DNA from: Verrucomicrobiota bacterium
GTDB taxonomy: Bacteria > Verrucomicrobiota > Verrucomicrobiia > Limisphaerales > UBA1100
Direction: 5' to 3'
Length of the DNA: 64,000 bases
Assembly: GCA_028343615.1 (NCBI GenBank)
Contig: JAOLZA010000004.1
Span: 8,697 to 72,696, forward strand
Under the pieces are notes generated by a model. That model did no database searches, was not told the DNA's origin, and worked only from the letters and a program-made list of their open reading frames with translations. Below are positions 25,795 through 54,713 of the stretch, one piece after another. How positions within the stretch are numbered: the first letter of the stretch is position 1; every line of letters begins with the position of its first letter. The position numbers and the translations under genes are program-made.

Positions 25795-25806
25795 CTTTAC
25801 TTTGCG

Positions 25807-29625: not shown

Positions 29626-29899
29626 GGCAAATAATTCTATGCAAAAATACGAATCCAGATTTAAGTTAGGGCAAAATGGTATATATTCTCCAGAAAGAAC
29701 TTTTCTGCCAACAACTGGGATCAGGATCTTACGGTCCGGACAGATTCTATCTCACCATATTAGTTGATAAAAGGCTAGGGAGGATTTGTGCCGCATGCAA
29801 CTTTCAAACTTGGGCAAAGCGGTATTGGTGCGAGGGAGTTGTCGTTTCCCGAGCATACTCGGAAACCAAGCGGATCTAGTCGATATATCACCGGTCGCG

Positions 29900-30643: not shown

Positions 30644-30844
30644 GTGCTGGGATCATAGGCGGTTGCTCTTAAAATTCAAGCCGAAGAGAGGTGTCCCTGC
30701 ATTTTCGCCGGAATTTTATCCTGCCTGAAAGGGCTTGCTGTAGGGATCGGCGTTTTTTACCATCCAGAAGGAGGTGTCGCCGACCCTTGCCGTACTTTGT
30801 CAACCTAAATACGTTGCGTTTCCAACTGGGAAAAATCTTAGATC

Positions 30845-32655: not shown

Positions 32656-32717
32656 AGGAAATGATGTTCAAAGTCACTTAGGTTTGATATGGGTGGGCGG
32701 CGTTTGTTGCCCATCGC

Positions 32718-33407
32718 ATGAAACAAAATCAGTCTAAAACTCAAGTTTCGGAATTCTACGAGGAGTTCCAGTCTCATGGGAAATATGACTACTTATATGG
32801 CGATGAAGACCGTAAAGAACTTTATGTAGATCTGATTGGAAAGGGCCATCGTATTCTCGAGGTGGGCTGCCGCGCCGGCAACTTAACCCAATACTTCCAC
32901 GAGGGTAATGAGGTGGTGGGCATTGATGTCGATCGCAACGCGCTTAAGGAATTTACCAAGCGCCTAGGCCTGACAGGCCATTGGGTTGATGCGGATTCAG
33001 AGGACTTCCCGTTTGATGACGCGCAATTTGACGTGGTGGTCTTCTCGGAGGTGATGGAGCATTTGCGTTTCCCGAAAAAGGCACTCAAGGAAATTGCCCG
33101 CGTGTTAAAGCCGGATGGGCGGCTGATTGGATCCGTCCCAAATGCGTTTCGGCTCCGCAATCGTCTGAAATTCTTGTTGGGAAAGCCATACGAAGTTGAC
33201 GCCTCCCACTTGAGATCTTATTCGCATACCTTGTTGCATAAAGAATTGTCCTCATGCTTCGAACAAATTGATATTCATCCCATCTCTGGCCACTTGTTAG
33301 GCGGAGGTAGCACGGGCATCCCGGTATACACTTGGCTGCCGTTCCGCATCCGGGCGCTGTTTGCATTGGATCTCGTGTTTGTTGGCGTGGGGAAAAACGT
33401 GAAATAA
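32718..33407 (+). CDS. Class I SAM-dependent methyltransferase (Methyltransf_11-like)
   Basis: ILEVGCRAGNL (motif I), FDVVVFSEVMEHL, LKPDGRLIGSVPN. Confidence 0.75.
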   Translation: MKQNQSKTQVSEFYEEFQSHGKYDYLYGDEDRKELYVDLIGKGHRILEVGCRAGNLTQYFHEGNEVVGIDVDRNALKEFTKRLGLTGHWVDADSEDFPFDDAQFDVVVFSEVMEHLRFPKKALKEIARVLKPDGRLIGSVPNAFRLRNRLKFLLGKPYEVDASHLRSYSHTLLHKELSSCFEQIDIHPISGHLLGGGSTGIPVYTWLPFRIRALFALDLVFVGVGKNVK

Positions 33408-34501
33408 TGAACATCGCCTTGGCACGCAGGGAGTTTGGTGCGGGCGGGGGAGCAGAGTTATATTTGCAACGGCTCATCGGTGCTTTGCGGGATAAAGGGC
33501 ACGAGGTGGTGTTGGTCACCGCGGATGCGAAGGCGAAACCGGAGGGTGTGGAAGTGCGGCGGGTGCCGCTTTTCGGCAGTCGTTCGGCGCGTATTGCGCA
33601 GTTCGACGCCGGCGTGCAAACGGTGCTGGCGAGCAAACCCGTGGATTGCCTGTTCAGCCTCGAGCGACTTAGCCGACAGGATGTATTGCGGGCGGGCGAT
33701 GGGGTGCACGCCTCGTGGATGGAACAGCGGCGGCGGTTTTCGCCGGCGTGGAAACGCTGGCTGGTGGGACGTGGTGCGTTTCATCGGGCAATGATGGATT
33801 TGGAAACGCGTGCGTACTCGCCCGCCAATACCCGCCATTTGATTATCAATTCCGAAATGGTGGCGCGTGATGTTCGCGCGCGGTTTGGGTTTCCGGATGA
33901 GCGGGTACACATGGTGCGTAATGGGGTGGAGTTGGAGCGTTGGCAGCGAGGTGACCGCGAAGCTCAACGTGCAAAGTGGGGATTGAGGCCGGATGAATTT
34001 CTGCTGCTGTTCGCCGGCTCCGGTTGGGAACGGAAAGGGTTGCCCTTTGTCATTGCTGCACTGGAAAAAATATCGGATTCCAGCCTCAAGCTTGTTGTTG
34101 CCGGAAAGGGCCGGTCACCTCGTAATGCACCGTCGGGCGTCCGGTTTGTGGGGCCTATGGCAGATTTAGAAAACGCGTATGCGGCGGCGGATTTATTTGT
34201 ATTTCCTCCCGTTTATGAGCCTTCGGCCAATGTAGTGTTTGAGGCATTGGCGGCGGGGTTGCCTGTGGTGACGAGCGCTTGCAACGGCGCGGCGGAGGTG
34301 ATTGAGGAAGGAATCAACGGCACCGTGGTGACGGCCCCCTCAGACATCGAAGCACTCGTTGATGCGATCCAATCCTGGCGTGCGTGTCCTAATGCGCGAC
34401 CGGTACCGGTGAAGGCGGACTTGAGTTTGGAACGCAATGTGCGCGAGACTTTGGCGGTGTTGGAATTAGCGGCGGCTGAGAGGGCCGCAGAGGAACGATG
34501 A
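33407..34501 (+). CDS. Glycosyltransferase family 4 (WaaG/RfaG-like)
   Basis: The start is at MNIALARREFGAGGGAELYLQRL (TAATG overlap at 33405-33409). YEPSANVVFEALAAGLPVVTS is an EX7E-like motif. Confidence 0.8.
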   Translation: MNIALARREFGAGGGAELYLQRLIGALRDKGHEVVLVTADAKAKPEGVEVRRVPLFGSRSARIAQFDAGVQTVLASKPVDCLFSLERLSRQDVLRAGDGVHASWMEQRRRFSPAWKRWLVGRGAFHRAMMDLETRAYSPANTRHLIINSEMVARDVRARFGFPDERVHMVRNGVELERWQRGDREAQRAKWGLRPDEFLLLFAGSGWERKGLPFVIAALEKISDSSLKLVVAGKGRSPRNAPSGVRFVGPMADLENAYAAADLFVFPPVYEPSANVVFEALAAGLPVVTSACNGAAEVIEEGINGTVVTAPSDIEALVDAIQSWRACPNARPVPVKADLSLERNVRETLAVLELAAAERAAEER

Positions 34502-35259
34502 AAATTTCACTTTGCATTATTACCAAGAATGAAGAGTCGAATTTGCGGCGGTGTCTCACGAGTGTGGCGTTGGTAGTGGATGAGATTATTGTGGTGGATT
34601 CGGGGAGCACGGATGGTACGGAGGAGGTGGCGCGGGAATTTGGGGCGCAGTGGGTGCATCAGGATTGGTTAGGGTTTATGGCACAGAAAAATCATGCGCT
34701 GAGTTTAGCGAACCACGATTGGGTTCTTAGTCTCGATGCGGATGAGGCGTTGTCGGGAGATTTGTTTTCGGAATTGCTTACGTTGAAGGAGGTGCGGTTT
34801 CCAGAAGGCATCATTGGATTCAGTTTACCGCGCTGTGTGTTGTATGAGGGCAAATGGATTCGGCGTGGGGATTGGTATCCGGACCGGCTGGTGCGGCTGT
34901 TCAAAAATGGCGTGGGCAAGTTTGCCGGGGGCAAGGTGCACGAGCGGCTGGAAATAGAGGGGGCAGTGCAGGAACTGGAAGGCGAACTTGAGCATCATTC
35001 GTTCCGCGACGTGGTCGATCACTGGTCGCGCTGCGAAACGTATGCCCAGCTTTGGGCGGAGATGAAGTTTGAAGAAGGGAAAAAGGTTAGTCGGCTCGAT
35101 GGATCAATTCACGCAGCGATTCGTTGGGTGCGTGGTTATTTGCTTCGCGGCGGGTTTTTGGATGGCGTGCAAGGTTGGCAAATTGCCCGCCTCAACTCGC
35201 GCGAGGTGAGACTGAAATATCGGTTGCTAAGGCAGATGAACATTGCCGCGCGTGAGTGA
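34498..35259 (+). CDS. Glycosyltransferase family 2 (LPS-core WaaE/KdtX-like)
   Basis: ISLCIITKNEESNLRRCL, IIVVDSGSTDGT, LSLDADE. Confidence 0.8.
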   Translation: MKISLCIITKNEESNLRRCLTSVALVVDEIIVVDSGSTDGTEEVAREFGAQWVHQDWLGFMAQKNHALSLANHDWVLSLDADEALSGDLFSELLTLKEVRFPEGIIGFSLPRCVLYEGKWIRRGDWYPDRLVRLFKNGVGKFAGGKVHERLEIEGAVQELEGELEHHSFRDVVDHWSRCETYAQLWAEMKFEEGKKVSRLDGSIHAAIRWVRGYLLRGGFLDGVQGWQIARLNSREVRLKYRLLRQMNIAARE

Positions 35260-35279
35260 GTGGCTTACAAGGCGGGCGC

Positions 35280-37133
35280 ATGGAAAATATCCGGCAAATT
35301 TTCGATTTCGGCTGGCCCTATGTGCGGCGGTACTGGGGGCGATTGGCGCTGGGCATTTTGTTGGGCGTGGCGTTCGGTTTGTTTAACGCTACTTTCGTTT
35401 GGGGTACCAAGACGCTTTTCGAACGGCTCGAGCCGGTGGAAACCACAGTGGACATCCCCCAAGCGGACGCTGTGCCGGGCGCGTGGAAGGCGAAGCTCAA
35501 CGCGCTGAACGAGCGAGCGCTGGCGGTGGCGGATGGGTGGCTGCCGCGCGTGGGGGTGCCGCTGGAGACGAAGCAGATCATCGGCGGTCTGATGTTTCTT
35601 CCGGTTCTAGTTTTTTTCCGAAGCGGCATTGGCTACGCGAGCGTTTATTGTCTGGGGTGGGTCAGCGAATATGCGGTGCGCGACATCAAGCTCGATGCCC
35701 ACAAAAAATTACAGGGATTGTCCATAGATTATTATCATGCTCGACAATTAGGCGATCACACGATGCTAATCAACCGTGGTGCGGGGTCATTGCACCGGTG
35801 CCTTACTTACGGCGTCGCCGATGCTATTAAGGAGCCGTTCACGATTCTCGGTTTAGTGGTGGCGATGTTTCTGCTTGATTGGCAACTAGCTTTGTTCGGG
35901 ATAATGTTCGCGCCGCTGAGCGCGGTCCCGATTGTACTGGTGGGCCGCAAGCTGCGGCGTGTGGCCAAAGTGGGTTACGACAAAGGTACGGAGCAGGATA
36001 GCCTGATGGTGGAGGTGTATACCAACATGCGCACCATCAAGGCTTATGGGCTGGAGCGGTTGCAGCAAAGTCGGTTTTCGGAGATTTACCAAAAGCTGGC
36101 GAGCGTGGGCATGAAATCATTACAGGCGAGGCACCTGCAAAACCCGGTCATTGAATTACTCAGCATGTTTGGTGCGGGGATGATTATTTTATTCGTGTTC
36201 CACACTGGAAAATCCGCGCCGCAGTTGGTGGGCTTTCTCACGGGGATGATTATGCTGTATCAACCGATCAAAAAACTTGGCGGCATCAACGCGTATTATC
36301 AGGAGGCATCCGTGGGTGTGGGGATGTTGCGCGAGGTGTTTGAAACTCAGCCTACGGTGGAAGAGGTGGTGGAGGCAAAGGCGTTACCGCGTTTGCGGGA
36401 AAGTCTCAAATTTGAAGCGGTGGATTTTAGTTATGGTGATGAGCCGGTGTTGTGTGAGCTGTCCGTGGATTTGCCTAAGGGCACGAAGCTGGGGGTAGTG
36501 GGCGAGAGTGGCGCGGGGAAGAGTACTTTGGTGAGTTTGTTACTACGGTTTTATGATCCTACGGGGGGGCGAATTATGATTGATGGCGCGGATATTCGGG
36601 AGGCGTCATTCGAAAGCTTGCGCGGGCAAATGGCGTTGGTGAGTCAGGAAATTGTGATTTTCAATCAGTCGGTGGCCGACAACATTGCGTGCGGCAAACT
36701 GGCCGCCACGCGCGAGGACATCATCGCCGCGGCCAAGGCGGCGAATGCGCACGAGTTTATCGAGGGCTTACCCGAGGGCTACGACACGCACTTGGGCGAA
36801 CAGGGTACCCGGCTTTCGGGCGGCCAACGCCAGCGAATTGCCATCGCGCGGGCGTTTGTGCGGCAGGCGCCGATTTTGATTTTGGATGAGGCGACGGCTT
36901 CGCTGGATTCCAAGGCGGAGGCGGAGGTGCAGGACGCGATCGATCGCTTGGAGGAGGGGCGCACTGTGGTGTGCGTTGCCCATAGACTTTCCACATTGCG
37001 CAGCATGGATCGCATCATTGTGCTGGATGCGGGCCGTGTGGTGGAGTCGGGCGGGTTTGCGGAATTGATGGAACGCGAGGGGGCGTTTGCCGAGATGGCG
37101 CGGAAGCAAGGGATTACTTCATCGGCGGTTTAG
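35280..37133 (+). CDS. msbA: Lipid A/lipid-linked glycan export ABC transporter, fused TMD-NBD (MsbA-like)
   Basis: A six-TM exporter domain, then GESGAGKST, LSGGQRQRIAIARAF, ILDEATASLD and VAHRLST. The start could also be the GTG at 35256. Confidence 0.8.
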   Translation: MENIRQIFDFGWPYVRRYWGRLALGILLGVAFGLFNATFVWGTKTLFERLEPVETTVDIPQADAVPGAWKAKLNALNERALAVADGWLPRVGVPLETKQIIGGLMFLPVLVFFRSGIGYASVYCLGWVSEYAVRDIKLDAHKKLQGLSIDYYHARQLGDHTMLINRGAGSLHRCLTYGVADAIKEPFTILGLVVAMFLLDWQLALFGIMFAPLSAVPIVLVGRKLRRVAKVGYDKGTEQDSLMVEVYTNMRTIKAYGLERLQQSRFSEIYQKLASVGMKSLQARHLQNPVIELLSMFGAGMIILFVFHTGKSAPQLVGFLTGMIMLYQPIKKLGGINAYYQEASVGVGMLREVFETQPTVEEVVEAKALPRLRESLKFEAVDFSYGDEPVLCELSVDLPKGTKLGVVGESGAGKSTLVSLLLRFYDPTGGRIMIDGADIREASFESLRGQMALVSQEIVIFNQSVADNIACGKLAATREDIIAAAKAANAHEFIEGLPEGYDTHLGEQGTRLSGGQRQRIAIARAFVRQAPILILDEATASLDSKAEAEVQDAIDRLEEGRTVVCVAHRLSTLRSMDRIIVLDAGRVVESGGFAELMEREGAFAEMARKQGITSSAV

Positions 37134-37149
37134 CGGCATCATTTTCCCT

Positions 37150-38031
37150 TCAAGCGGGGATAGCTGCGGGCACTATCATTGGCTGCGGCATTCCATTGAA
37201 GGTGGCGGGCACTTGTTGCACGCCAAGGATGGTGTGCAGTTGCGCGTTGAGAATGGTCATGTTCGGGTAGCGCTGATCGGGTGAATGGGCGAGGCAGCGG
37301 AGGATGAGTTGGCTGAGCGCGATTGGCACTTCGGGATTGATGCGGTTGGGTGGCTTCACGGGGAAATTTTCATCGAGCTGATTGCGGAGGGCCTCATCGG
37401 GCGTGCGGCCACTGAAGGGTTTGCGGTGGGTGAGCAGCTCGTACATGGTGGCGCCAAAGGCGTAGATGTCGGCGCGCTGGTCAATTTTCTCATTCTTCAA
37501 TTGCTCAGGTGGCATGCACGAGGGTGTGCCGGAGGCGCGGGAAAACTTTTTGGGTTGGCGCGGTATTTTTTGCGCTGTATCGAAATCCAGTAAACTCACG
37601 TGGCCGTTGAGTGAGATCATTAGGTTCTCTGGTTTGAGGTCCAAATGCATCCAGCCGTGGTCGTGCAGGTGGTTGATGCCGTCGGCGGCTTGGATGATTA
37701 CATCGGCTACGTTGTCCACGAGATGATCGTGATCGCGCATGAGTAATTCCTTCAGGTTCGCGCCTTGGATGAATTCCAGAACCATGAAGGGCAGTCCATC
37801 TGCTTTGCCGTGGTTGATGTAACGAACCACGTTCGGGTGCGGTGCTAGCTTTCGAAGCACCCCGAGACCGGCTTTGAAAAGCTTGGGAGCGTTGGATTGC
37901 TTGAGCACGCGCCGCCGAAGCCTTCGTACAGCGACTACGTTCTCATGTTCGTCGGTTGCGAGCCAAATTTCCGTGATTCCACCCTGATTTACGCAGTCGT
38001 GTAGCCGATACTTCCCAAATTTCTGTGCCAT
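37150..38031 (-). CDS. Stand-alone Hanks-type Ser/Thr protein kinase domain with degenerate catalytic motifs
   Basis: HLDLKPEN (HRD to HLD), LLDFDTA (DFG to DFD), GTPSCMPPE (APE-like). VAVRRL sits where VAIK is expected. The G-loop is NQGGITEI. There are no extra domains. Confidence 0.75.
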   Translation of the reverse strand: MAQKFGKYRLHDCVNQGGITEIWLATDEHENVVAVRRLRRRVLKQSNAPKLFKAGLGVLRKLAPHPNVVRYINHGKADGLPFMVLEFIQGANLKELLMRDHDHLVDNVADVIIQAADGINHLHDHGWMHLDLKPENLMISLNGHVSLLDFDTAQKIPRQPKKFSRASGTPSCMPPEQLKNEKIDQRADIYAFGATMYELLTHRKPFSGRTPDEALRNQLDENFPVKPPNRINPEVPIALSQLILRCLAHSPDQRYPNMTILNAQLHTILGVQQVPATFNGMPQPMIVPAAIPA

Positions 38032-38243: not shown

Positions 38244-38344
38244 GTTGTGCCTCACGATCCGCACAGGCATTATGTTCTCGGCGTGTTTGAAACAGTTCCG
38301 AGACCTGTGCGTCTGACTTGCGGTGGGTGTTGCGATATTTTCTG

Positions 38345-40075
38345 ATGATAAAACAACGAAAGAGTAGTTCGGGCAATTTTCTCCGGAGATTTGCTGTTTG
38401 TGCCATATTCTCCATGGGAATGGTGGGTTGTAAAAACGCGGCAGAACACCACGCGGCTGCCGACGAAGAGGTGTACGATATTCTTAAATTGCGCCATCAA
38501 CAACTATTTGGAGCGGAACAGGCATTCGCGGTGGAGACACCCTACTCCAAGCGCGCGCCGGGCGACATTCCTTCGGTGGAGATTATCCTAAACCGTTTTT
38601 CCGATGGCACCAATTTGCTAACGCTGCCTAAGGCGCTGGAGATGGCGGTGAATCACAGTCGCGATTACCAGCTCCAGCGCGAGACGTTGTATCTCTCCGC
38701 GCTGTCACTCACCGGCGAGCGGCACAAATTCGCGCTCAAACCCACCAAGGCCAATCTCGACCTCAGCCGCAACCGCTCCAGTAGTAACGTCAACACCACC
38801 GAATCCGACGCCACCCTGACTCTCAGCAAAGCGCTCAAGACTGGCGGCACGCTCACGGCCACGCTTGCCAACGACCTCACGCTCTTTTTCAATGGCGGCG
38901 GCCCCAAGATTCCGGACCTCACCCTCGCGCTCACGCAGCCGTTGCTAAAAGATGCCGGCGCGAAGTTTGCCGAGGAATTGCTGACGCAATCCGAGCGCGA
39001 TCTTGTGTATGCTATCCGTACCTTTTCGCGTTATCAAAAAACTTTTCTGGTCGACCGCATTTCCGAGTATCTAGCACTCTTGCAAAAAAAGGATGAGGTG
39101 CGTGTCCAATATGAATTGTACCAAAACCGAATCCTGTTCCGGAAGGAACAGGAGCTGCGTCTTCAGGGTGAACTGATTAGTCAATTCGAGCTGGATCAGG
39201 CACTGCGGCAGGAATATTCCTCGAAGGTAAGTTACATTAACGCCATAGAATCGTATCAGGCCTTGCTGGATGATTTCAAGAAACAACTCAACTTGCCACT
39301 GGGCGAATCGGTGGTACTGGACGATGCTGAACTGGGCAACTTTAAGCAATTTGGCCTGCAACCGGTGCCTTTGAATGACAAGCATGGTTTCCAGCTCGCA
39401 CTAACCAATCGGTTGGATATTTTGAATAACATCGACAAATTCGAAGATAAGAAACGCAAAGTGGAGGTTTCCGCCAACGACCTGTTACCCAGTCTTGCTG
39501 TCGTGGCGGATTACTCCCTCAAAGATCAGTTTTACAATCGCAACTCTTTCGACTTCGGCGATTACTCTGGTAAGATTGGCCTCTCGCTAGATTTGCCGCT
39601 GGATAAACACACCGAGCGCAACGCCTACCGCAAGAGTCGTATTACCTTCGAGCAACAGTTACGCAGTTTGATGAAGACACTCGATGACTTGCGCGATGAG
39701 ATTCGTACTAATGTACGTACACTGGATCAGAACCAGCAATCGTACGTGATCAACCAGAAAGCACTTGCAGTATCCAGGCGTGAACTTGAGAAGGCGAAGC
39801 TGGATATGCTGGCTGGTGGCAACGTTTCCCCTCGTGACATTCTCGAAGCGCAGACTGCTGTGGCCAAGGCGCAGAATGATGTTACAAAATCCTTCATAAA
39901 TTTCCATACCCAGCGCCTAAAGCTACTCAACAACACCGGCATTCTCAACACCGGCTTGAATCAGTTTTGGGTGCAACCACAACCCGTGCCGGGCGTGGCG
40001 ACAGGGGTGCCTCTTCCACCGGGCGCGGAGCAAGATGTGCCGGTGCTGCCGCCGGCACAAATTTTAGGCAATTAA
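38345..40075 (+). CDS. TolC-family outer-membrane efflux lipoprotein (copy 1)
   Basis: Lipobox FSMGMVGC. The two-repeat coiled-coil/beta-barrel pattern (LALTQPLLKDAG...; GLSLDLPLD...) is typical of the OEP family. The start is set at ATG 38345. Confidence 0.8.
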   Translation: MIKQRKSSSGNFLRRFAVCAIFSMGMVGCKNAAEHHAAADEEVYDILKLRHQQLFGAEQAFAVETPYSKRAPGDIPSVEIILNRFSDGTNLLTLPKALEMAVNHSRDYQLQRETLYLSALSLTGERHKFALKPTKANLDLSRNRSSSNVNTTESDATLTLSKALKTGGTLTATLANDLTLFFNGGGPKIPDLTLALTQPLLKDAGAKFAEELLTQSERDLVYAIRTFSRYQKTFLVDRISEYLALLQKKDEVRVQYELYQNRILFRKEQELRLQGELISQFELDQALRQEYSSKVSYINAIESYQALLDDFKKQLNLPLGESVVLDDAELGNFKQFGLQPVPLNDKHGFQLALTNRLDILNNIDKFEDKKRKVEVSANDLLPSLAVVADYSLKDQFYNRNSFDFGDYSGKIGLSLDLPLDKHTERNAYRKSRITFEQQLRSLMKTLDDLRDEIRTNVRTLDQNQQSYVINQKALAVSRRELEKAKLDMLAGGNVSPRDILEAQTAVAKAQNDVTKSFINFHTQRLKLLNNTGILNTGLNQFWVQPQPVPGVATGVPLPPGAEQDVPVLPPAQILGN

Positions 40076-40094
40076 AATCGGACTCTAACTCATT

Positions 40095-42155
40095 ATGAAA
40101 AAAACAAATTTATTTCCAATCAGTGCCTTCGCAATGGTTGCAGTGGCTTTGGCCGGGTGTAATTATTTTTCCAGTGATGATGAAGTCTCCAGCACCTACG
40201 GCACGGAGAAAGTGGAGAACGAGCAATTCATCGTGTCCTTTTCCGAAGGCGGCGAACTAGTGTCGGTGAATGCGGTGAAGGTGGAAAATGAAATGGATGG
40301 CTCCGCTTCCATCGTGAGTATTGTGGACGAGGGCTCCTACGTGGAGGGGCCGCGTCAGGTTCAGGTGGAGCTCGGTGACACGCCTGCCAAACTGGCAGCA
40401 CGGCACAAGATTCCTGAGGCAGATCTGCGGAATATGAATCCCGCTCTGGAACAAGCGATCGCTAATAATGAGACAATTATGTTACCGGGAGATTTGTTGG
40501 TGGAACTGGATCCCGGCTCGTTAAAGGATAGAATTCTCAGCCAGGAAATCTCCGTGCGCACGTCGAAGAATTCCGTAATCAAATCACAGAACGATCTTGA
40601 GATTCAAAAGCTGAGGAATGAGCAGAACATTGATGACGCGAAAATTTCCCTGAACTTTGCCAATCTGGATTTGAAGAAATTCAAGAACAGTGACGCCCGC
40701 CTCACGCGCGAGGATTACGCGGGGCAGCTTTCCAACCTCTCCAACAAGGTATCCATCTCCGAGGCCAAGCTGGTTTATTTGAGGGAACTGGAGAAGAAAC
40801 AATTCCTTTCTAAAATGTCCCTGCGCGAGGAAGAGCAAAAGGTTTCGGAGTTCCGTCACAACATCCGGATGCTACGCGGTGAAAGCGATGCCTATGAAAA
40901 ATATGTGTATCCAAAATCCGAGCAAGATTATAATTCCAAAATCAAACAGGCCGAGCTTTCGCTGACTACTGTGGAGCAAACTGCCACCAATAATATGATC
41001 ACCGCTACTGAGGAGGTGGATACACAAAAGCAGAAACTTCAGCTTGAGGAAGAAAAACTCACCGAGGTTAAGGATCAAATGAACAAAAGCCGCATTTACG
41101 CGCCCTCCAGCGGGTTGGTGGTCTATCACGTCGGCGAATCCTCACGCTACGGCGGCTCCTCCGGCATCATCGAGAAAGGCACCACTCTGCGCAAGGGGCA
41201 GGATATCATTCACCTGCCGGATCTTTCCAAAATGAAAGTGCAGCTCAAAATTCACGAGAGTCGCATCAATCAAGTGAAGCCCGGCTTGCAGGTGCAGATC
41301 CGTATCGACACCATTTCCGATCGCACCTTTCGCGGTGAGATCACCTTTGTCGCCCCTGTGGCTGCTGCTGCCGAGCGTTGGGGTAGCGACAAAAAGGTTT
41401 TTAAATGCGAGGTCGCTATCAAAGATAAACTGCCATCGTATATCCGCCCTGGCGCCTCTGCTACTTGTCGCATCTTTGTGGCCAACCTGCCGAAGGTCCG
41501 AACGGTGGAAGGTGAACAAATCAAAACCCTGCGGGTGCCCATCCAGAGCGTGGTCACCACCGTCGAAGGCCGGCGTGTGTGTTTCAAGATGAATAAAAAA
41601 AACCAGCCCATCCCCGTGCCGGTGGAGACGGGCTATTACGACCAAACTCACATCCAAATCACCAAAGGTTTGGCCCTTGGTGAAGTCATCCTCAAAGCCC
41701 CCCTGCTCCACGCCAAAGAGCTGAACGTCGGCGGCGGCCTCTTTGGCTACCGGCAAATCAATGCCGATGATTTCTTCGCGGATTTACCCGAGACCATCGA
41801 GCCCGCCAAGCCTGTGGAGCCTCAACCCAGCATCGCCCAAAAGGCACCGCCCACCAAAGGGGGGCAAGGCAAGGGGCGGCCGGGCGGAGGTTCTGGACGT
41901 TCTACAGAGCCCCCTGCAGAACTCAATCTTTCCGCCGAGCAAAAAACCCAGTGGGCTGCGGCCGCTAAGAAAATGGCCGACAAAATGACAGACATTCGCG
42001 CTCGCCAAGCATGGACTGAGATGCGCACTTTGCGTGATGGATTCAAGGCAGATCTCGGGAAGTTTCTCACCAAGGATCAGCTTGCCAAATACGATGAGCT
42101 CAATGCCCAACGTGCTGGTGGAAGTGGCGGCAATCGCCCGGGTGGCGGAGGTTAA
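40095..42155 (+). CDS. HlyD/MacA-type periplasmic adaptor lipoprotein with a LysM-like insertion and a C-terminal G/P-rich plus LTxxQ tail (adaptor 1)
   Basis: Lipobox VALAGC. The lipoyl half-motifs IVSIVDEGSYVEGP ... PGDLLVELDP are split by VQVELGDTPAKLAARHKIPEADLRNMNP...IMLP. A long coiled coil and beta-barrel follow (RIYAPSSGLVVY). The tail contains LSAEQ and LTKDQ. Confidence 0.8.
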   Translation: MKKTNLFPISAFAMVAVALAGCNYFSSDDEVSSTYGTEKVENEQFIVSFSEGGELVSVNAVKVENEMDGSASIVSIVDEGSYVEGPRQVQVELGDTPAKLAARHKIPEADLRNMNPALEQAIANNETIMLPGDLLVELDPGSLKDRILSQEISVRTSKNSVIKSQNDLEIQKLRNEQNIDDAKISLNFANLDLKKFKNSDARLTREDYAGQLSNLSNKVSISEAKLVYLRELEKKQFLSKMSLREEEQKVSEFRHNIRMLRGESDAYEKYVYPKSEQDYNSKIKQAELSLTTVEQTATNNMITATEEVDTQKQKLQLEEEKLTEVKDQMNKSRIYAPSSGLVVYHVGESSRYGGSSGIIEKGTTLRKGQDIIHLPDLSKMKVQLKIHESRINQVKPGLQVQIRIDTISDRTFRGEITFVAPVAAAAERWGSDKKVFKCEVAIKDKLPSYIRPGASATCRIFVANLPKVRTVEGEQIKTLRVPIQSVVTTVEGRRVCFKMNKKNQPIPVPVETGYYDQTHIQITKGLALGEVILKAPLLHAKELNVGGGLFGYRQINADDFFADLPETIEPAKPVEPQPSIAQKAPPTKGGQGKGRPGGGSGRSTEPPAELNLSAEQKTQWAAAAKKMADKMTDIRARQAWTEMRTLRDGFKADLGKFLTKDQLAKYDELNAQRAGGSGGNRPGGGG

Positions 42156-42191
42156 GGTCGCGGCGGTAATTAATTTTCAAGCGTTTCGAAT

Positions 42192-42908
42192 ATGGAAACA
42201 AATCTAAACGGCAACGGTACGTCTATCATTCGCATTGAGGGAATGAAAAAGATATATGATCTTGGCGAGGTAAAGGTACCCGCATTAGCAGGGGTGGATA
42301 TCAACATTAAGGAGGGCAGCTACGTTGCTATCATGGGCCCCTCTGGCTCCGGTAAATCCACGCTGCTAAATTTGCTCGGTTGCCTCGATCGGCCCACCTC
42401 CGGCCGGTATTTCCTGGGCGAACAGGATGTGTCCCTCATGAGCGATAGCGCTCTGTCCGAAGTGCGCGGTCAACGCATCGGATTTATCTTCCAGTCATAT
42501 AACCTCATTCCGCAGCTGGATGTGGTGGAAAACATTCATGTGCCACTTTTTTATCAGGGCAAACAACTCTCCGCTCATCGTGAGCATTGCGAGGATCTGG
42601 CGCGGCTGGTGGGTCTGGCTGACCGGCTCGATCACCGCCCGCTGCAACTTTCTGGTGGTCAACAGCAGCGCGTTGCCGTGGCACGGTCGTTGGTGAATGA
42701 TCCATTAATGATCCTCGCCGATGAACCCACTGGCAATCTCGATTCCAAAACCGGCCTGGAAATCCTCGCACTGCTAGACAAGCTGCATGCCGATGGCAAG
42801 ACCATCGTTGTGGTGACGCACGATGAGGAAGTGGCGGAACGCGCGGATCGGGTAATTCGGCTCAAGGACGGTCTAGTGGATCGCGACGAACCCAATCCAC
42901 GTAAATGA
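42192..42908 (+). CDS. ABC transporter ATP-binding protein, MacB-NBD/LolD type (the only NBD gene in the cluster)
   Basis: [45 protein letters not shown]. Confidence 0.9.
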
Positions 42909-42909
42909 T

Positions 42910-44691
42910 ATGGGCTTCTTCCGCGCCATTATTCAAGGCATCAAGAGCCTCATGCTCTACCCGCTTCGCTCGATGCTCACTATGCTGGGCATCATCTTTG
43001 GTGTGTGCTCAGTGATTGCGATGCTTGCCATTGGCGAGGGCCAAAAACAAAAGGCAGAGGAGGAAATTAAAAAACTCGGTGCTATCAACATCATCATTAC
43101 CAGCCAAAAACCCATTGCGCAGGAAGTGCAGGGCCAGCGCACGGGGTTTGTGGCCAAGTACGGTGTGAAGTATGACGACGCTGCGCGCATTGCCGACCTG
43201 CGCGATGCCGGCGTGATCCGCGTGTTGCCCGAAAAAATTCGACGTGAGGACGTGGCCTTCGATCAGTTTGTGAAAAAGGACCGCGCAATTTACGGTACGA
43301 CTCCGTACTTTTTAGAATTCAGCCAAGCCGAAGTGGTGATGGGGCGTTTCATCAGCGAGGAGGACGAGATGACCAAGAACAATGTGTGTGTGATCTCAAC
43401 TACGTTGGCCTCGGAATTGTTTGCGTACCAAAATCCGCTTACCAATGAAATTAAAGTCGGGAAATATTATTACCGCGTGGTGGGCCTTGTGCGCACTCCG
43501 GCGGATTTATTGCGTGATTTCAAGGAGCAAAAACAACGCGTGCTTGACGAAGCCGTATTACGTGAAGCCGCGGCGCGGCTGGAGGAGAGCTTGGCGGCGC
43601 AGAATAAAATCATCAATCAGCGTCGGGAAAAGTTAAAGACCGGCACCGCCAAGGAACGCATGGTGGGCGAGGTAATTGAGCGCGAGCATCTCATTGAAAA
43701 CTCGGATATTTTGAAGCTCAACAAATTGCCCCCAATCGTTTTTCAGGAACGATTGGAAAATCAGGACACGCCGGAATCCAAATGGTTTTCCGACCAATCC
43801 GGCAAGGAATTTTTCGTGACGCCCGAAAACTGGGTGTACTCTTATGAAGGCAACAAAGCCGAGCTGGCTGGCCATCTCGGCCACGGGCGCGTTATGCGGA
43901 TGGCGATGGAGGCGGATATGGGCAATCAGGAAAGCAACCTCGGTAAGGCTAACGAATTTTATGGCGACGTGTACGTGCCTTTCCACACGTTGAGGCAGGA
44001 TTATGGTGATCGTGAATTTAAGCGGCAATCCGGTGGTATCTCAGCCAAGGAGGTGCAGATCGATCGGCTGCGTGTACAATTCGATCGGATGAATCATGTG
44101 ATCCCCGGTGCTAAAATGCTTGAACGTACAATGCGATACGGGCATCAGGATGTTCAAGACTTCGTCATCCGTGTGCCGCTTGATGAGCTAGCCACCGCGC
44201 GCAAAATTAACCTCATCTTCACCATCGTGCTTGCGGCTATCGCTTCCATCTCGCTGTTGGTCGGCGGTATTGGTATTATGAATATTATGCTTGCGACTGT
44301 CACCGAGCGTACCAGCGAGATTGGCGTGCGCCGCGCGTTGGGTGCCAAGAAGCTGCATATCATCCGCCAATTCCTCGTGGAAACCAGCGTGCTCTCTATA
44401 GCTGGAGGTATATTGGGTATCGCGGTGGGCTATGTATTCCCCAAATTGGCACAGAAGATTCTAAGTTCAAATGAGACTCTAAGTTGGCTAAGTGATAAAA
44501 TCCGGCAGATTACGTTTGGCATATTAGATTACGATTTTACAAAATTTAGCTACAATTTGGAGCTCGTCTTTACAAACTGGTCTGTGGCGTTGGCCTTTGG
44601 CCTTTCAGTATGTGTGGGCATCATCTTTGGCATTTACCCCGCCTATCGTGCTGCGAACCTCGACCCCATCGAAGCGCTGCGGCATTCTTAA
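42910..44691 (+). CDS. MacB/FtsX-type ABC permease with an enlarged periplasmic domain (permease 1, 593 aa)
   Basis: TM1 [26 protein letters not shown]. FtsX core [31 protein letters not shown] and C-terminal DPIEALRHS. It is about 160 aa longer than the three paralogues. Confidence 0.85.
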
Positions 44692-44789
44692 TGCCGGTGT
44701 TCCGATTCGCTCAGGAGCATCATTATTTTGTAACGCGGATGACATTCCTGCTGTAATAAGTGATAGCGAAGCATTGTGTGCAAATTTTA

Positions 44790-44818
44790 TTGAAAAGAAC
44801 TGGGGGTTTTTATACAAT
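44790..44818 (+). promoter_or_regulatory. Candidate sigma70-type internal promoter for the second efflux module
   Basis: TTGAAA-17 nt-TACAAT in the AT-rich 193-bp gap between permease 1 and adaptor 2, about 66 nt upstream of ATG 44885. Confidence 0.4.
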
Positions 44819-44884
44819 GTAAACAGTTTCCGTTGGGATGAAGACAGGGCATCGAGGCATACGTCCGAATTGCAAATTGAGCTA

Positions 44885-47026
44885 ATGACCATGAAAAAAC
44901 AAAATCAAACGACCGTAGACCAGAAGGGGTTTGCCATGGGAAAGTTACTCGGATTGTTAGCCTTGCTTGGATTGGTGGTCGGAGGCGTTTGGGGTGTTAA
45001 GCATTTGCTTTCCAAGGAAGAAGAGAAGGTCCGTCAGGAAAAGTACTGGACCGCTGAGAAGGCCGATTTTTTGGTGACAGTGAAACTCACGGGCAGGCTG
45101 GCTTCCACGGATGTGGTGGAACTCAAGTGCCAGCTAGAAGGGAGCACAACGATCGAATCGATTGTGGACGAAGGCGTCGAGGTCAAAGGTCCATTCAGGT
45201 ATATTATCAAGGCAGGTGATACACTTGCGTCAATTGCCGAATACATGGGTAGAGATGATCTTTCCATCCGCCTGCTTAATTCAGTAGAAGATATTGATTG
45301 GGGTAATTTGCCCGAAGGTCAGTCGATCATGATTCCCGGCGACCTACTGGTGGAACTGGATCCGCTCAATCTCAAGGAGCGGATTAACCAGATGGAGATC
45401 GTGGTGGAAAAGTCCGAGAATTCGCTCTTACGAATGACTGGAAACCTGAAAAACACCGAGCTCGCGGCGGCCTTCTCCTTAAAAGTCGCGGAAAATAATC
45501 ACAAGCTGGCAATCATGGCGCAGGACAAGGCCATAAACAGTACCATCAAAAACCAAATCAAGTCTGATATGGGAAGTATTACCAATCTTGCCAACCAAGT
45601 GGAGGAATCCAAAGAACAGATGGCAATCTCAGAAGCCAAGCTTAAGTGGCTCAAGGAGTTGGAGGAGAAAAAATTCCTTTCCAAGATGTCTTTGCGTGAG
45701 GAAGAACTGAAATTGATCAGGGAGCGGAATAATGCCCAGAATCTTCGCCACCAAATCGCGATGGCTCAAGAGCGGCTGGATGCCTACCAGAAATATGATA
45801 GTGTATCTATTCTGAACCAAAGTGAATTGGCTGTTGATGAGGCCTTGGTCTCCATTGAGAAGGTAAAGGTAAGGAATGTTGCTGACTTGAGGGATGCCAA
45901 TTCAACCATTGCCACCCAGAAGAAGACCTTTGAACTGGAAAAGGAAAGACTCGAAGATCTTAAGGAGCAAATGGCGGCCACAAGGATTTATGCGCCTTCA
46001 GATGGCACTGTTGTCTATTTTTCGGAAAGCTATAAGGAATACGGACCCATCATGGATGGGGCTCGAGTGCACCGAGGCCGCAACCTCATCAAGCTTCCCA
46101 AGACCAAGTCTCTGAAAGTAGAACTCAATGTTCCGCAAGCCAAACGAGGGCTTCTCAGGCGCGACATGAAAGCTTGGGTGCAGGTGGAGGATGTGACTCT
46201 GCCAGGAACCCTCTCGGTACTCGGGAGTACGGTTGATACCAATCGTCGTGGTCACACCGAAAAATCATATTTTAAAGGCGAAGTGTATATCGATAACAAT
46301 GATTTTCCCGATGCAGTTTCTGAAGGTATGACTGTTACCGTGGAGATCAAGGTCATCAATCTTGAGGGCGAAAACCAGCGGATCAAGGTCCCCAACCAAT
46401 GCGTGACAACCCGGATGATCAGTGAAGATACCGCACAGACTGGCTGCTATGTGTTGGATCCCGCCACCAAGAAACATAAGTGGCGACCGGTGACCATTGA
46501 ATACAGCGATGAAAACTTTATCGCGATCAAGGAAGAAACAGATCCAAGATTTGGCCTTCGAGAAGGTGAATTGATCCACTTGTCACCGTTGACTGAAGCA
46601 GAGAACCTAAACTTGGAGGAGGCAGTCATGGACAAAGGGATAGTTGAGTTGGGGGATCCAGGCAGCGTGGAAGCTTTGAATGTAAAAGGGAGAAATAGCG
46701 AACCTGTGGATTTTGGGTTGAGTGATGAGCAGCGGAAAGAGTGGGATGCGGCACAAGCCGAGGCCACAAGCGGAATTGCGGAGGTGATCAAGAAAATTCA
46801 GTCAAGGGAGATACCGCAAGAGAATGCCGTTTCAGTATTGAGTGAAACTTTTGAAGGTTCCCGTGCAAAGCTTGAGGGATTTCTTACTGAAGATCAGTTG
46901 AAGAAGTATGATGTATGGATTATTCCCGCCAAACAGGCTGCCGGCGAGAGGGTAAAACGTTTTCTTTCAACAAAATCTTCATTAGGGAAGTCGGTTAGCG
47001 GTAAGCAACGGCGTAATCGTAAATAG
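44885..47026 (+). CDS. HlyD/MacA-type adaptor with an N-terminal TM anchor, a LysM-like insertion and an LTxxQ tail (adaptor 2)
   Basis: The start is set at MTMKKQ (ATG 44885). The ORF-track extension to 44597 overlaps the previous gene. Anchor LLGLLALLGLVVGGVWGV. Insertion YIIKAGDTLASIAEYMGRDDLSIRLLNS...GQSIMIPGDLLVELDP. Tail has LSDEQ and LTEDQ. Confidence 0.8.
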   Translation: MTMKKQNQTTVDQKGFAMGKLLGLLALLGLVVGGVWGVKHLLSKEEEKVRQEKYWTAEKADFLVTVKLTGRLASTDVVELKCQLEGSTTIESIVDEGVEVKGPFRYIIKAGDTLASIAEYMGRDDLSIRLLNSVEDIDWGNLPEGQSIMIPGDLLVELDPLNLKERINQMEIVVEKSENSLLRMTGNLKNTELAAAFSLKVAENNHKLAIMAQDKAINSTIKNQIKSDMGSITNLANQVEESKEQMAISEAKLKWLKELEEKKFLSKMSLREEELKLIRERNNAQNLRHQIAMAQERLDAYQKYDSVSILNQSELAVDEALVSIEKVKVRNVADLRDANSTIATQKKTFELEKERLEDLKEQMAATRIYAPSDGTVVYFSESYKEYGPIMDGARVHRGRNLIKLPKTKSLKVELNVPQAKRGLLRRDMKAWVQVEDVTLPGTLSVLGSTVDTNRRGHTEKSYFKGEVYIDNNDFPDAVSEGMTVTVEIKVINLEGENQRIKVPNQCVTTRMISEDTAQTGCYVLDPATKKHKWRPVTIEYSDENFIAIKEETDPRFGLREGELIHLSPLTEAENLNLEEAVMDKGIVELGDPGSVEALNVKGRNSEPVDFGLSDEQRKEWDAAQAEATSGIAEVIKKIQSREIPQENAVSVLSETFEGSRAKLEGFLTEDQLKKYDVWIIPAKQAAGERVKRFLSTKSSLGKSVSGKQRRNRK

Positions 47027-47028
47027 CC

Positions 47029-48330
47029 GTGTTTGGGTTTTACATCCTTCGCATCGTTCAGGTGGGCTTCAAAAGCTTAAGGCTTCACAAGTTGCGGAGT
47101 GGTCTCACTATGCTGGGCATTGTCATTGGTGTGTGGGCCGTTATCACACTGGTCGCCATCGGTGAAGGGGCAAGCCATGACGCGCAGGAGGCGATCAAGG
47201 CACTGGGCGCGAATAACGTCATTATTCGTAGCGTAAAGCCTTTGTCAGACAAGCTCCAACTGCAGGGGAGAATGCAGTGGGAGACGATCTACGGCCTGAA
47301 AAATTCAGACGCAGGGCGGATTCTAAAAACAGTGCCGGGAGTTAAGCGTGTGTTGCCTATCCTGAGCCAGCGCAAGAATGTGGTACACGGCAAACGAAAT
47401 GTAGATTGCCAACTCATTGGCACCTTCCCTCACTACCCTGGATTCACCCAGTCCCGTATCGTTGCCGGTCAATTTCTAAATGAGATGGAGGAGGCTCGAA
47501 AAGAAAACTCCTGCGTCCTCACACTAGAGTTGGCTGAGAAGCTGTTCGCGGGCCAAAATCCACTCCTGGAAAATGTGATTGTTCGCGGTGTTGAATCTGC
47601 GCAGGTCTTCCGGGTAAAGGGTATTTTACAAGAGCGCGTGGATACCGAGAAACTGCCGCAGATGGCAGACGCAATGGGGCGAACGATTTCTGCCAATGTG
47701 TACATCCCTTTGTCTACCTTTAAAGCCCTTTACGGAATCAAGAATATTGATCTTAGCGTTGGCAGCGTTTCTGTGGAGCGCGTGGAGCTTACCGAGATTC
47801 GGGTTGAATTCGGATCGGTTGAAGAGGTGATCCCTGCGTTGCCGCTTCTCAGGGATTGCCTTGATAAATCACGCAAAGGCGAGGTGGATTACGAGATTGT
47901 GGTTCCCATTAAAGAGCTCAACACCCTCAAGGCGCAAAAAGCGCGTGATACCCGTATGCTTCTATACATCGCCTGTATCTCACTGTTGGTCGGTGGAATT
48001 GGCATTATGAATATCATGCTGGCCACCGTCACCGAGCGCACTCAGGAGATTGGTATCCGTCGGGCACTGGGGGCGACCCAGACGGACATTACCGTACAGT
48101 TCATGGTTGAGGCGCTGATGCTCTGCCTGATTGGGGGCACTATTGGGGTGGTGGGCGGTTGGGCGTTTGCCGCGTTCCGGCACAACATTTTACATATAAC
48201 GACCATAGTTACTGAATGGTCGGTAGTCATCGCTTTTGGTTTGTCCGTTGTAGTCGGGTTATTTTTCGGCATTTGGCCGGCTATCAAGGCTGCTGCATTG
48301 GATCCCATAGAAGCCCTGCGGCATAATTAG
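47029..48330 (+). CDS. MacB/FtsX-type ABC permease (permease 2)
   Basis: GTG start 3 nt after the adaptor stop. Motifs: [66 protein letters not shown]. Confidence 0.85.
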   Translation: MFGFYILRIVQVGFKSLRLHKLRSGLTMLGIVIGVWAVITLVAIGEGASHDAQEAIKALGANNVIIRSVKPLSDKLQLQGRMQWETIYGLKNSDAGRILKTVPGVKRVLPILSQRKNVVHGKRNVDCQLIGTFPHYPGFTQSRIVAGQFLNEMEEARKENSCVLTLELAEKLFAGQNPLLENVIVRGVESAQVFRVKGILQERVDTEKLPQMADAMGRTISANVYIPLSTFKALYGIKNIDLSVGSVSVERVELTEIRVEFGSVEEVIPALPLLRDCLDKSRKGEVDYEIVVPIKELNTLKAQKARDTRMLLYIACISLLVGGIGIMNIMLATVTERTQEIGIRRALGATQTDITVQFMVEALMLCLIGGTIGVVGGWAFAAFRHNILHITTIVTEWSVVIAFGLSVVVGLFFGIWPAIKAAALDPIEALRHN

Positions 48331-48436
48331 TCTATTATGGTAACAGAGGTGAAAAGATTGCCCCCAAAGAATCGTAAAATGTAATATTAAAGCTCCTCAT
48401 GCTGTAAGAATGGGAGCGAATTCACAGTTTTAAGTT

Positions 48437-49750
48437 ATGCTTGGTTTATCCATTCTACGCATCATTCAAGTTGGCTTCAAAGGACTTCGGCTGCACAAAC
48501 TGCGTAGCGGTCTGACGATGCTTGGAATGATCATTGGTGTGTGGGCGGTTATCACTCTGGTCGCCATAGGGGAAGGGGCCAGCCATGATGCGCAGGAGGC
48601 GATCAAGGCACTGGGCGCGCAAAATGTTATCATTCGAAGTATTAGGCCCCCCTCAATGAATGCCCAAATGCAGGGGGATTGGGAGAGTTTCTTTCGTCGG
48701 TGGATGGCGATCTATGGGCTCAAGAACACGGATGCAACTCGCATAAAAGAAACTGTGCCGGGAGTGAAACGCGTATTACCCATTTTGAATAAGCGCCTGA
48801 ATGTCGTGCATGGTCGCCGCGAAGTGGATTGTCAACTCATCGGCACCTATCCCTATTACCCGGAATTCACACAATCCAAAATTATCGCTGGGCAATTCTT
48901 GAATGAGGCCGAGGAAAACAGCAAGGCTTCCTCCTGTGTGGTTTCTCTGGAACTGGCGCAGAGACTATTCTCCGGACACAATCCACTCATGGAAAAGGTG
49001 ATTGTGCGAGGCTATGAATCTTCGCAGGTTTTTCAGGTTAAGGGTATTTTGGAGGAGCGCACTGATACTGAGAAATTGCCGCAATTGCCCGATGCTATGG
49101 GCCAGACAATTGCCGCCAACGTGTATATTCCTTTATCTACTTTTAAGTCGTTGTTCGGCGTTAAGAATGTTGACCGCAGTGTGGGCAATCTTAAATTGGA
49201 GAGTGTGGAACTGTCGGAGATTCGCGTGGAGTTCGACTCTGTTGAGCAGGTGATTCCGTCATTGCCGATGCTCATTGAAGCTTTGCAGACTGGGCGTGCT
49301 GAGAGGGATTTCGAGATTGTCGTTCCTATTAAGGAGCTCAACACTCTCAAAGCGCAAAAGGCGCGAGACACCCGCATGCTTCTTTACATCGCTTGCATCT
49401 CGCTATTGGTGGGCGGTATAGGCATAATGAACATCATGCTGGCCACCGTCACCGAGCGCACACAGGAGATTGGTATCCGTCGGGCACTGGGAGCCAAGCG
49501 GACGGACATAACCGTACAGTTTTTGGTGGAAGCCCTGATACTTTGTCTAATTGGCGGTTCCATCGGTGTTTTAGGTGGCTTAGCCTTTGCCGCATTCCGG
49601 CATAACATTCTACACACAACGACCATCATTACTGAATGGTCGGTACTTATCGCTTTCGGCTTATCGGTGGCGGTGGGGCTGACCTTCGGCCTTTGGCCAG
49701 CAATCAAGGCGGCCTCACTCGATCCCATTGAAGCTCTGCGGCACACGTAG
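48437..49750 (+). CDS. MacB/FtsX-type ABC permease (permease 3), a tandem paralogue of permease 2
   Basis: Long runs identical to permease 2, for example [47 protein letters not shown]-terminus is DPIEALRHT. Confidence 0.85.
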   Translation: MLGLSILRIIQVGFKGLRLHKLRSGLTMLGMIIGVWAVITLVAIGEGASHDAQEAIKALGAQNVIIRSIRPPSMNAQMQGDWESFFRRWMAIYGLKNTDATRIKETVPGVKRVLPILNKRLNVVHGRREVDCQLIGTYPYYPEFTQSKIIAGQFLNEAEENSKASSCVVSLELAQRLFSGHNPLMEKVIVRGYESSQVFQVKGILEERTDTEKLPQLPDAMGQTIAANVYIPLSTFKSLFGVKNVDRSVGNLKLESVELSEIRVEFDSVEQVIPSLPMLIEALQTGRAERDFEIVVPIKELNTLKAQKARDTRMLLYIACISLLVGGIGIMNIMLATVTERTQEIGIRRALGAKRTDITVQFLVEALILCLIGGSIGVLGGLAFAAFRHNILHTTTIITEWSVLIAFGLSVAVGLTFGLWPAIKAASLDPIEALRHT

Positions 49751-49814
49751 ATCTGCCTTGATACATAAAATACCGATTAAAACCAACGGGCGTGCGTCCA
49801 ACTTGCCCCTAAAT

Positions 49815-51515: not shown

Positions 51516-51519
51516 AAAA

Positions 51520-53229: not shown

Positions 53230-53243
53230 TCCGACCGCATCCG

Positions 53244-54533: not shown

Positions 54534-54713
54534 AGCTTCAAAATTCGATGTTGGCACATTAGTTGCTTAAATTGCGTCATAAGGAAACAGACGTGAAAAC
54601 GACTGGTTTTCCGGAAAAAGTTTGAAGCTGGCGTGTGAATTTTCACGCAATTGAGTGAGTTTTGCGCACCGTCGGTTAATTCGGTAAAAAAATATCAAAA
54701 TAGGATCATTAAA

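Follow-up and report, generated by a model that had tools for sequence, protein, structure and literature searches.

A predicted LTXXQ-type helical module at the C-terminus of MacA-type adaptors in a Verrucomicrobiota ABC pump cluster

The window, that is the whole stretch of DNA analysed here (64,000 nucleotides of contig JAOLZA010000004.1 of a Verrucomicrobiota bacterium), contains a cluster of genes for an ATP-binding cassette (ABC) tripartite pump (38318–54533, on the forward strand, as are all the features of the adaptor genes described below), composed of one ABC ATPase gene, four MacB-type permeases, three periplasmic adaptors and two outer-membrane factors. Two of the three adaptors end in a module of about 70–80 residues carrying two L[ST]xxQ motifs, which an earlier note on this DNA, made from the letters alone, had assigned to the Spy/CpxP/ZraP family of periplasmic chaperones and sensors. 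Sequence profiles indicate that the tails of these two adaptors are, with high probability, divergent and shortened members of the LTXXQ superfamily; the resulting fusion of module and adaptor is apparently an undescribed domain architecture made of known parts. The properties of the adaptors, the relationships and the variability of their tails, and the function that such a module might have at the pump are the focus of the present report.

The pump cluster and its three adaptors

Adaptor 1 (40095–42155, 686 residues) matches Pfam HlyD_D23 (42.9 bits) and HlyD_3 (36 bits) above the cut-offs and is identical in sequence to GenBank MDC0143174.1, which an exact-sequence look-up places in a Verrucomicrobiota metagenome-assembled genome (MAG). 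Adaptor 2 (44891–47026, 711 residues, Pfam HlyD_3) is its paralogue, the two proteins being 31% identical overall (BLASTP E 3e-76); its start is set at 44891 (MKKQNQ...) by the orthologue P0087, and the upstream TTG of the program-made open reading frame was rejected as a start because the orthologues begin at MKKQNQ. The third adaptor (51520–53229, 569 residues) has no tail. Adaptor 1 carries a lipoprotein signal with a LAGC lipobox; the N-termini of adaptors 2 and 3 serve as membrane anchors, that of adaptor 2 being a transmembrane segment.

The best Foldseek match of the full-length AlphaFold2 (AF2) model of adaptor 1 is MacA in the MacAB-TolC assembly (9qgy_G, E 1.5e-18; 5nik_D, E 1.5e-17), and the membrane-proximal, lipoyl, beta-barrel and alpha-hairpin architecture of MacA is recovered by the Pfam and Foldseek matches of the protein; as modelled, adaptor 1 is thus a MacA-type periplasmic adaptor of an ABC tripartite pump. 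Compared to MacA (PDB 5NIK, 9QGY), the window adaptor is twice as long, and the differences reside in the hairpin, whose helices measure about 90 residues, in a LysM-like insert, in the lipoprotein anchor (adaptor 1) and in the C-terminal tail. The partners are of the same types as those of MacA: TolC-like outer-membrane factors (38318–40075 and 49728–51515, Pfam OEP), a single ABC ATPase (42192–42908, Pfam ABC_tran) and four MacB-type permeases (42910–44691, 47029–48330, 48437–49750 and 53244–54533, Pfam MacB_PCD and FtsX); ATPase and permease are separate genes here, as in DevBCA-type systems. The order of the genes is the same in a related locus, L002, which has one permease fewer and a tail-less adaptor 2 (P0078). 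Of the 13 related loci identified in genomes, all but one, from a Prevotella MAG, belong to Verrucomicrobiota MAGs; several of the isolate names (ANT-, FRAM_, ETNP) suggest marine samples.

Some features of the pump proteins deserve mention in their own right. The alpha-hairpin of adaptor 1 (residues 143–330, 40521–41084) is predicted by AF2 to consist of two unusually long helices of about 90 residues, which we take to be longer than those of E. coli MacA. The LysM-like insert (GDTPAKLAARHKIPEADLRNMNP...ETIMLPGDLL; residues 86–131, 40350–40487) lies near the N-terminal end and is modelled as three short helices flanked by short strands; equivalent regions are present in adaptors 2 and 3, Pfam LysM being sub-threshold in the window adaptors (E 0.007 and 0.056) and precomputed in several orthologues, while in P0064 a second LysM-like stretch, read by eye from the sequence, is apparent later in the protein. 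Such an insert suggests a contact of the pump with peptidoglycan. The permease encoded beside adaptor 1 (42910–44691) is 593 residues long, against 429–437 in the other three, and has about 240 extra residues between its MacB_PCD and FtsX domains.

The C-terminal module and its relatives

In adaptor 1, the body of the protein is followed by a Pro/Gly-rich linker (residues 551–606, 41745–41912), predicted to be disordered, by a three-helix module (residues 607–675, 41913–42119) with the motifs LSAEQ (41928–41942) and LTKDQ (42066–42080), and by a Gly-rich C-terminal end (GSGGNRPGGGG, 42120–42152). In adaptor 2 the module (46697–46936), which has a net charge of -6, carries the motifs LSDEQ (46718–46732) and LTEDQ (46883–46897) and is directly followed by a conserved, strongly basic C-terminal tail (AAGERVKRFLSTKSSLGKSVSGKQRRNRK, 46937–47023); the net charge is +10 over the 32-residue stretch AKQAAGERV...NRK, beginning three residues upstream of 46937, and among orthologues sharing about 95% identity in the core, the basic tail is 86–93% identical. 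The two motifs start at residues 612 and 658 of adaptor 1 (46 residues apart) and at residues 610 and 665 of adaptor 2 (55 residues apart).

The tail peptides quoted in the earlier note are exactly those obtained by translating 41778–42155 and 46706–47026, and the homology that it had proposed between the two tails is borne out (BLASTP, 34% identity, E 7e-8, equivalent positions in both paralogues). Its Gly/Pro-rich linker is a property of adaptor 1, where Gly and Pro make up 39% of 46 residues, and not of adaptor 2, where they account for 19%. Adaptor 3 is indeed devoid of the tail: there is no L[ST]xxQ motif after residue 550, the protein ends some 120–140 residues earlier than adaptors 1 and 2, and the six-frame scan gave no profile match in it.

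The structure prediction is consistent with a folded unit. Modelled alone on the alignment of 30 non-redundant adaptor tails from which our profile A2 was made, tail 1 is predicted to form a compact module of three helices (11–34, 37–54 and 57–71) with a predicted local distance difference test (pLDDT) score of 89.3, in which the two L[ST]xxQ motifs coincide with the starts of helix 1 and helix 3 or precede them by one to two residues. In the full-length model of adaptor 1 the same helices (614–637, 640–657 and 660–675) have pLDDT values of 81–90, and values below 50 are found, in the tail, at residues 551–561 and 563–603 of the linker and at the last 12 residues; since a linker of low pLDDT is combined with a confidently predicted module, the tail would be a folded domain on a flexible tether rather than a coiled coil or a purely disordered extension. 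The helical nature of the tail anticipated in the earlier note is therefore upheld by the prediction.

As to the relationship of this module to known families, Spy of E. coli is an ATP-independent periplasmic chaperone (PDB 3O39, 3OEO, 5WNW); like the module as modelled, it is all-alpha and has a helix beginning at each of its two L[ST]xxQ motifs. In the window tails, too, the two motifs are tens of residues apart, and in the model of tail 1 they stand at or just before the N-termini of helices. Spy is located in the periplasm; the same location is probable for the tail, given the MacA-type adaptor to which it belongs. Among the orthologous tails, 21 of 30 match Pfam LTXXQ (PF07813) at E<=1, the best at 6.5e-7. 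An exhaustive profile search with A2 retrieved 3507 proteins at E<=1e-3, and among the best 150 of these, 113 of the 148 newly found proteins match Pfam LTXXQ at E<=1e-5 (best 1.4e-22), several of the new relatives matching also the NCBIfam models of Spy and CpxP. A combined profile (A3), built from the window tails and 71 modules of the newly found relatives, aligns with Spy from end to end (E 1.4e-9; profile positions 3–75 against Spy 2–95), and with the VirG-like protein STV (E 0.007) and CpxP (E 0.035); a significant link to solved members of the superfamily is thus obtained through intermediate sequences. As a guard against circularity, a leave-out profile was made from 239 free-standing modules at most 35% identical to the tails, all adaptors being excluded; with this profile tail 1 obtains 69.5 bits and tail 2 obtains 44.6 bits, whereas the highest scores among 2000 shuffled versions of each tail were 17.6 and 9.3 bits, respectively.

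Several results count against this assignment. On Pfam LTXXQ, whose gathering threshold is 24.3 bits, tail 1 reaches 16–18.3 bits (E 0.004–0.019) and tail 2 gives no Pfam match, both window tails thus lying under the threshold; the tail-only profile A2 aligns both motifs with those of Spy in the PDB at E 0.84 only, and hhalign of A2 against a narrow alignment of Spy yields a probability of 35% (P 4e-4), one reason for the weakness of the latter result being that all the sequences retrieved with Spy were enterobacterial and shared 88% identity or more. Foldseek gave no significant match for the model of the tail (best E 1.7), the weak matches (E>1, poor superposition with root-mean-square deviations of 8–11 A) including STV (5io8), Spy (6bie, 6owx) and CnrXs. 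Finally, the module is shorter than Spy, a free protein, 21 residues of which, in two insertions, have no counterpart in the roughly 70 residues and three helices fused to the adaptor. The family proposed in the earlier note is hence supported through the orthologous tails, the free-standing relatives and A3, and not by the window tails on the Pfam model itself.

The sub-threshold Pfam scores and the Foldseek result are what would be expected if the LTxxQ motifs had arisen by chance in a coiled-coil or disordered tail unrelated to Spy and CpxP. This explanation is refuted by the profile links and the shuffle controls, disagrees with the confident compact helical model, and is left with hardly any probability; indeed, the motif pair is not fortuitous, because seven positions (P4, L9, Q13, W17, L55, Q59 and Y63) are invariant across the 30 non-redundant orthologous tails and the scores of the leave-out profile are far above those of the shuffles. 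Tail 1 also matches Pfam Metal_resist and DUF4890 below threshold, and Spy itself matches the same Pfam trio (LTXXQ, Metal_resist and DUF4890).

It should be added that the 75-residue tail, when used by itself, retrieved no homologues, since the word index is too coarse for such a short and divergent query; the whole adaptor as query and the exhaustive profile search were required to find the relatives. The only match of the tail in a phmmer search of the PDB, a glycine-rich segment of uS5, was discarded as spurious.

Most of the best 150 matches of A2 are secreted proteins consisting of two to five tandem copies of the module. These free-standing proteins have a median length of 245 residues and contain two modules (96 proteins), three (36) or up to five, and signal-peptide-like N-termini are present in 123 of 142. 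They (for example P0123, P0133, P0186 and P0121) carry the same module of about 70 residues, with E values down to 1e-48 on the tail profile, and the Gly/Pro/Arg-rich linkers between the modules are also the same; P0124 combines two modules with a pair of EF-hands, resembling the tail of an adaptor (see below). They differ from the tails in the two to five copies per protein and in the lack of any attachment to a pump. In Verrucomicrobiota the closest of the free-standing relatives is P0121, a membrane-anchored protein whose gene is surrounded by those for GFO/IDH oxidoreductases, a tail-specific protease and components of a type II secretion system, with no pump adjoining. The earlier note had asked whether free-standing Spy-like genes might stand beside such pumps: six-frame scans covering the window and 17 related loci revealed none, nor any additional module in the window. 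A description of the use of the LTXXQ unit in tandem arrays was not found in the papers retrieved.

Deletion and exchange of tail segments

Nearly all orthologues of adaptor 1 are 750–800 residues long, and in most of them the module is followed by a Gly-rich spacer and a pair of EF-hands, LTXXQ plus EF-hand pair being the commonest form of the adaptor 1 tail. In P0001 (encoded on contig L001), a protein sharing 99% identity with adaptor 1, the EF-hand pair passes the Pfam cut-offs (EF-hand_5, 36.7 bits versus 25.9); in adaptor 1 of the window two DxDxDG loops above the Pfam thresholds are not found, the pair having been deleted. Indeed, alignment of the DNA with L001 shows a deletion of about 240 nucleotides between two GCGGCGGT repeats and a GAA>TAA change at 42153–42155, the premature TAA (GAA in sister strains) and the scar GGTCGCGGCGGT-AAT-TAA together spanning 42153–42173.

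The 90% cluster to which adaptor 1 belongs comprises five long and four short forms. P0390 has the deletion only (...GGGGEGRGGN), P0391 and P0395 have a different deletion junction (...GGGGGSGGN), the window adaptor has the deletion plus the stop, and L003 has a third, out-of-frame junction; glycine-codon repeats flank the EF-hand pair, and the LTXXQ module is intact in every short form. The different junctions in sister assemblies imply that the EF-hand pair has been lost repeatedly, on the evidence of these alignments in at least three independent deletion events among close relatives, the tail of adaptor 1 in the window being the remnant of a longer LTXXQ plus EF-hand tail. Misassembly was rejected as the cause of the missing pair, given that three different junctions occur in independent assemblies.

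The tail is variable also on a larger scale. EF-hands without the module are found in P0012, P0061, P0069 and P0070, and the module without EF-hands in P0139 and P0235; an orthologue of adaptor 2 in L013 bears two LTXXQ modules, and some orthologues of adaptor 2 are tail-less, such as P0078 in the otherwise syntenic L002. The orthologue of adaptor 1 named P0013 (938 residues) shows cadherin-like/Big_9 repeats after the module in place of the second EF-hand; this may represent a genuine variant or result from a chimeric contig.

Between close orthologues the module diverges far more than the core does, and in an incongruent manner. P0004 is 96% identical in the core and 62% in the module, P0003 being 90% identical in both. 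Between the window and L005 or L006, DNA identity falls at about residue 601 from 90–97% (90–95% at third positions) to 53–78% (25–55% at third positions); between L001 and L006 it is 93–98% up to about residue 594, drops to 51–73% over a stretch that takes in the module, the spacer and approximately the first EF-hand, and thereafter recovers to 82–93%. The divergent segment is about 350 nucleotides long (about 41895–42152 in the window; 2208–2507 of L001 in the comparison with L006). Synonymous sites are saturated within it, the flanks having a synonymous divergence (dS) of 0.2–0.5, and wherever dS could be measured the ratio of nonsynonymous to synonymous divergence (dN/dS) is about 0.12. 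Saturated synonymous sites inside flanks of low dS indicate imported alleles; in-situ positive selection as the source of the divergence was rejected on the strength of these values and of the low dN/dS. By comparison of these sequences, the module region of adaptor 1 appears to be a cassette exchanged by recombination, made up of old alleles under purifying selection and not of decaying ones. The module of adaptor 2 also diverges faster than its core, and no sharp mosaic was seen there.

A tail that loses parts in this way might be regarded as a functionless relic under erosion, and the three or more independent EF-hand deletions, the nonsense mutation in close relatives and the faster divergence of the module region compared to the core would agree with such a view. 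Nonetheless, erosion stops at the module, and to the invariant positions and the dN/dS already mentioned must be added the duplication of the module in L013 and its presence in adaptor 1 orthologues down to 33–48% core identity; retention over such distances, together with dN/dS, argues for functional constraint on the module. We consider decay very improbable.

Possible roles of the module at the pump

How MacB-type pumps find their substrates in the periplasm is, to our knowledge, still poorly understood. Substrate chaperoning, capture or stress sensing, the roles imagined for the tail in the earlier note, are what a module of this family might conceivably provide there. The C-terminus of a MacA-type adaptor would, by analogy with MacA, correspond to its membrane-proximal end, and because the C-terminus of MacA lies in the membrane-proximal domain, a hexameric adaptor would surround the base of the pump with six modules in the periplasm, held on leashes of about 50 residues and adjacent to the periplasmic domains of MacB. 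There the modules could act as ATP-independent, holdase-type binders keeping a periplasmic ligand or partner near the pump entrance, and in the long form of the tail binding could be modulated or stabilised by Ca2+. A tethered LTXXQ module on a MacA-type adaptor, endowed with holdase-type binding, is as a whole the explanation that we favour, by a modest degree of confidence; binding of the holdase type, taken as the mechanism, is put forward tentatively. The position of the module relative to the pump, its oligomeric state and its binding or chaperone activity are all inferred.

The nearest documented parallel, and also the only documented chaperone-adaptor fusion that we found, is SilB of Cupriavidus metallidurans CH34, an adaptor of the resistance-nodulation-division (RND) type that bears a CusF-like metallochaperone domain at its C-terminus (PMC4446572, citing Bersch et al. 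2011). A periplasmic chaperone which also exists as a stand-alone protein is fused in SilB, as here, to the C-terminus of a pump adaptor; SilB differs in that its chaperone is a beta-barrel binding Cu/Ag on a metal RND pump, whereas in the window an alpha-helical LTXXQ module is joined to a MacA-type adaptor of an ABC pump and tail 1 contains neither His nor Cys.

A number of observations fit the binding module less well. In some lineages it is absent from adaptor 2 (P0078) or from adaptor 1 (P0012, P0069), and is thus dispensable for assembly of the pump; it is the fastest-diverging folded part of both adaptors, and it is exchanged between strains, which is unusual for a general chaperone; moreover, neither an experiment on an LTXXQ-adaptor fusion nor a published description of one was found in the literature. 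The exchange of alleles is in keeping with a strain-dependent partner, or else with a surface under loose constraint. Carrying the first of these possibilities further, the modules might be strain-specific capture domains for a variable periplasmic client (a peptide, a protein or an amphipathic glycoconjugate) which is handed to the MacB-type pump, the exchange of cassettes tracking the cargo and the EF-hand pair serving as an optional Ca2+ switch; this would be the first ATP-independent chaperone of the Spy type to be integrated into a machinery for efflux or secretion, and we regard it as a speculative and rather unlikely extension.

CpxP, acting on CpxA, and ZraP, acting on ZraS, are regulators as well as chaperones, and free-standing relatives of the tails match CpxP models. 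The module could accordingly be a regulator or sensor that binds the periplasmic domain of MacB, the adaptor or an envelope sensor and gates the pump, in a Ca2+-dependent fashion in the long form; most orthologues of adaptor 1 do pair the module with EF-hands, and the extra stretch of about 240 residues in the permease 42910–44691 could be a candidate partner for the tail. Yet no two-component sensor is present in the cluster, the only kinase nearby being a short Ser/Thr kinase domain; the EF-hand pair is lost repeatedly and the module kept; the lack of His and Cys in tail 1 makes zinc binding of the ZraP type unlikely; and the Ca2+ levels of marine waters would be expected to keep periplasmic EF-hands loaded. 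Regulation is therefore judged unlikely, albeit the best placed of the other proposals.

Spy and CpxP are obligate dimers, Spy using a dimeric cradle, and a hexameric adaptor could give three pairs of modules. A purely architectural role, in which modules pair between protomers or bind a component of the envelope and thereby stabilise the hexamer or position the pump with no client involved, might also draw on the acidic module and the conserved basic tail of adaptor 2, the latter able in principle to bind anionic lipids or glycans, and on the LysM-like insert of all three adaptors, which suggests contact with the envelope. A disordered linker of about 50 residues is, however, a poor structural brace; adaptor 3 does without the module, as do orthologues of adaptor 2 in otherwise syntenic clusters; and exchange of alleles between strains would be risky for a self-pairing interface. 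Such an assembly or anchoring element seems to us improbable; together with regulation, it is the principal competitor of the binding module.

Upstream of the pump cluster (24568–38031) lies a gene set for the biosynthesis of a sulfated and methylated glycan. It encodes glycosyltransferases of the GT4 and GT2 types, methyltransferases (among them one of the TylF type), a sulfotransferase, an adenylylsulfate (APS) kinase, a protein in which a pyruvate-kinase barrel is fused to ATP sulfurylase, and a TauE as well as an ABC exporter; a lone short Ser/Thr kinase gene comes next, on the minus strand, and the order GT2-exporter-kinase-pump is retained in L002. These glycan genes may hint at the cargo of the pump. 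The gene directly downstream of the cluster (54651–55604) encodes a protein whose N-terminus carries a methylation motif like that of type IV pilins (N_methyl, E 1.7e-8); we take proteins of this kind to be common in Planctomycetes-Verrucomicrobia genomes.

The adaptors of this family are currently annotated simply as "efflux RND transporter periplasmic adaptor subunit", and if the tail is only a loosely constrained appendage, the present finding amounts to an improvement of that annotation. The LTXXQ unit of about 70 residues is a widespread and repeatable building block, as the 3507 proteins retrieved and the tandem arrays prevailing among the best 150 of them illustrate, and the evolutionary fluidity of the tail, with its EF-hand deletions and module exchange, provides natural variants on which function can be tested. 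If the tethered binding module is real, several modules of the Spy family (six, if the adaptor is hexameric like MacA) would be held at the base of an ABC pump, as a second and unrelated solution to the joining of chaperone and adaptor, and periplasmic chaperones would be linked to export.

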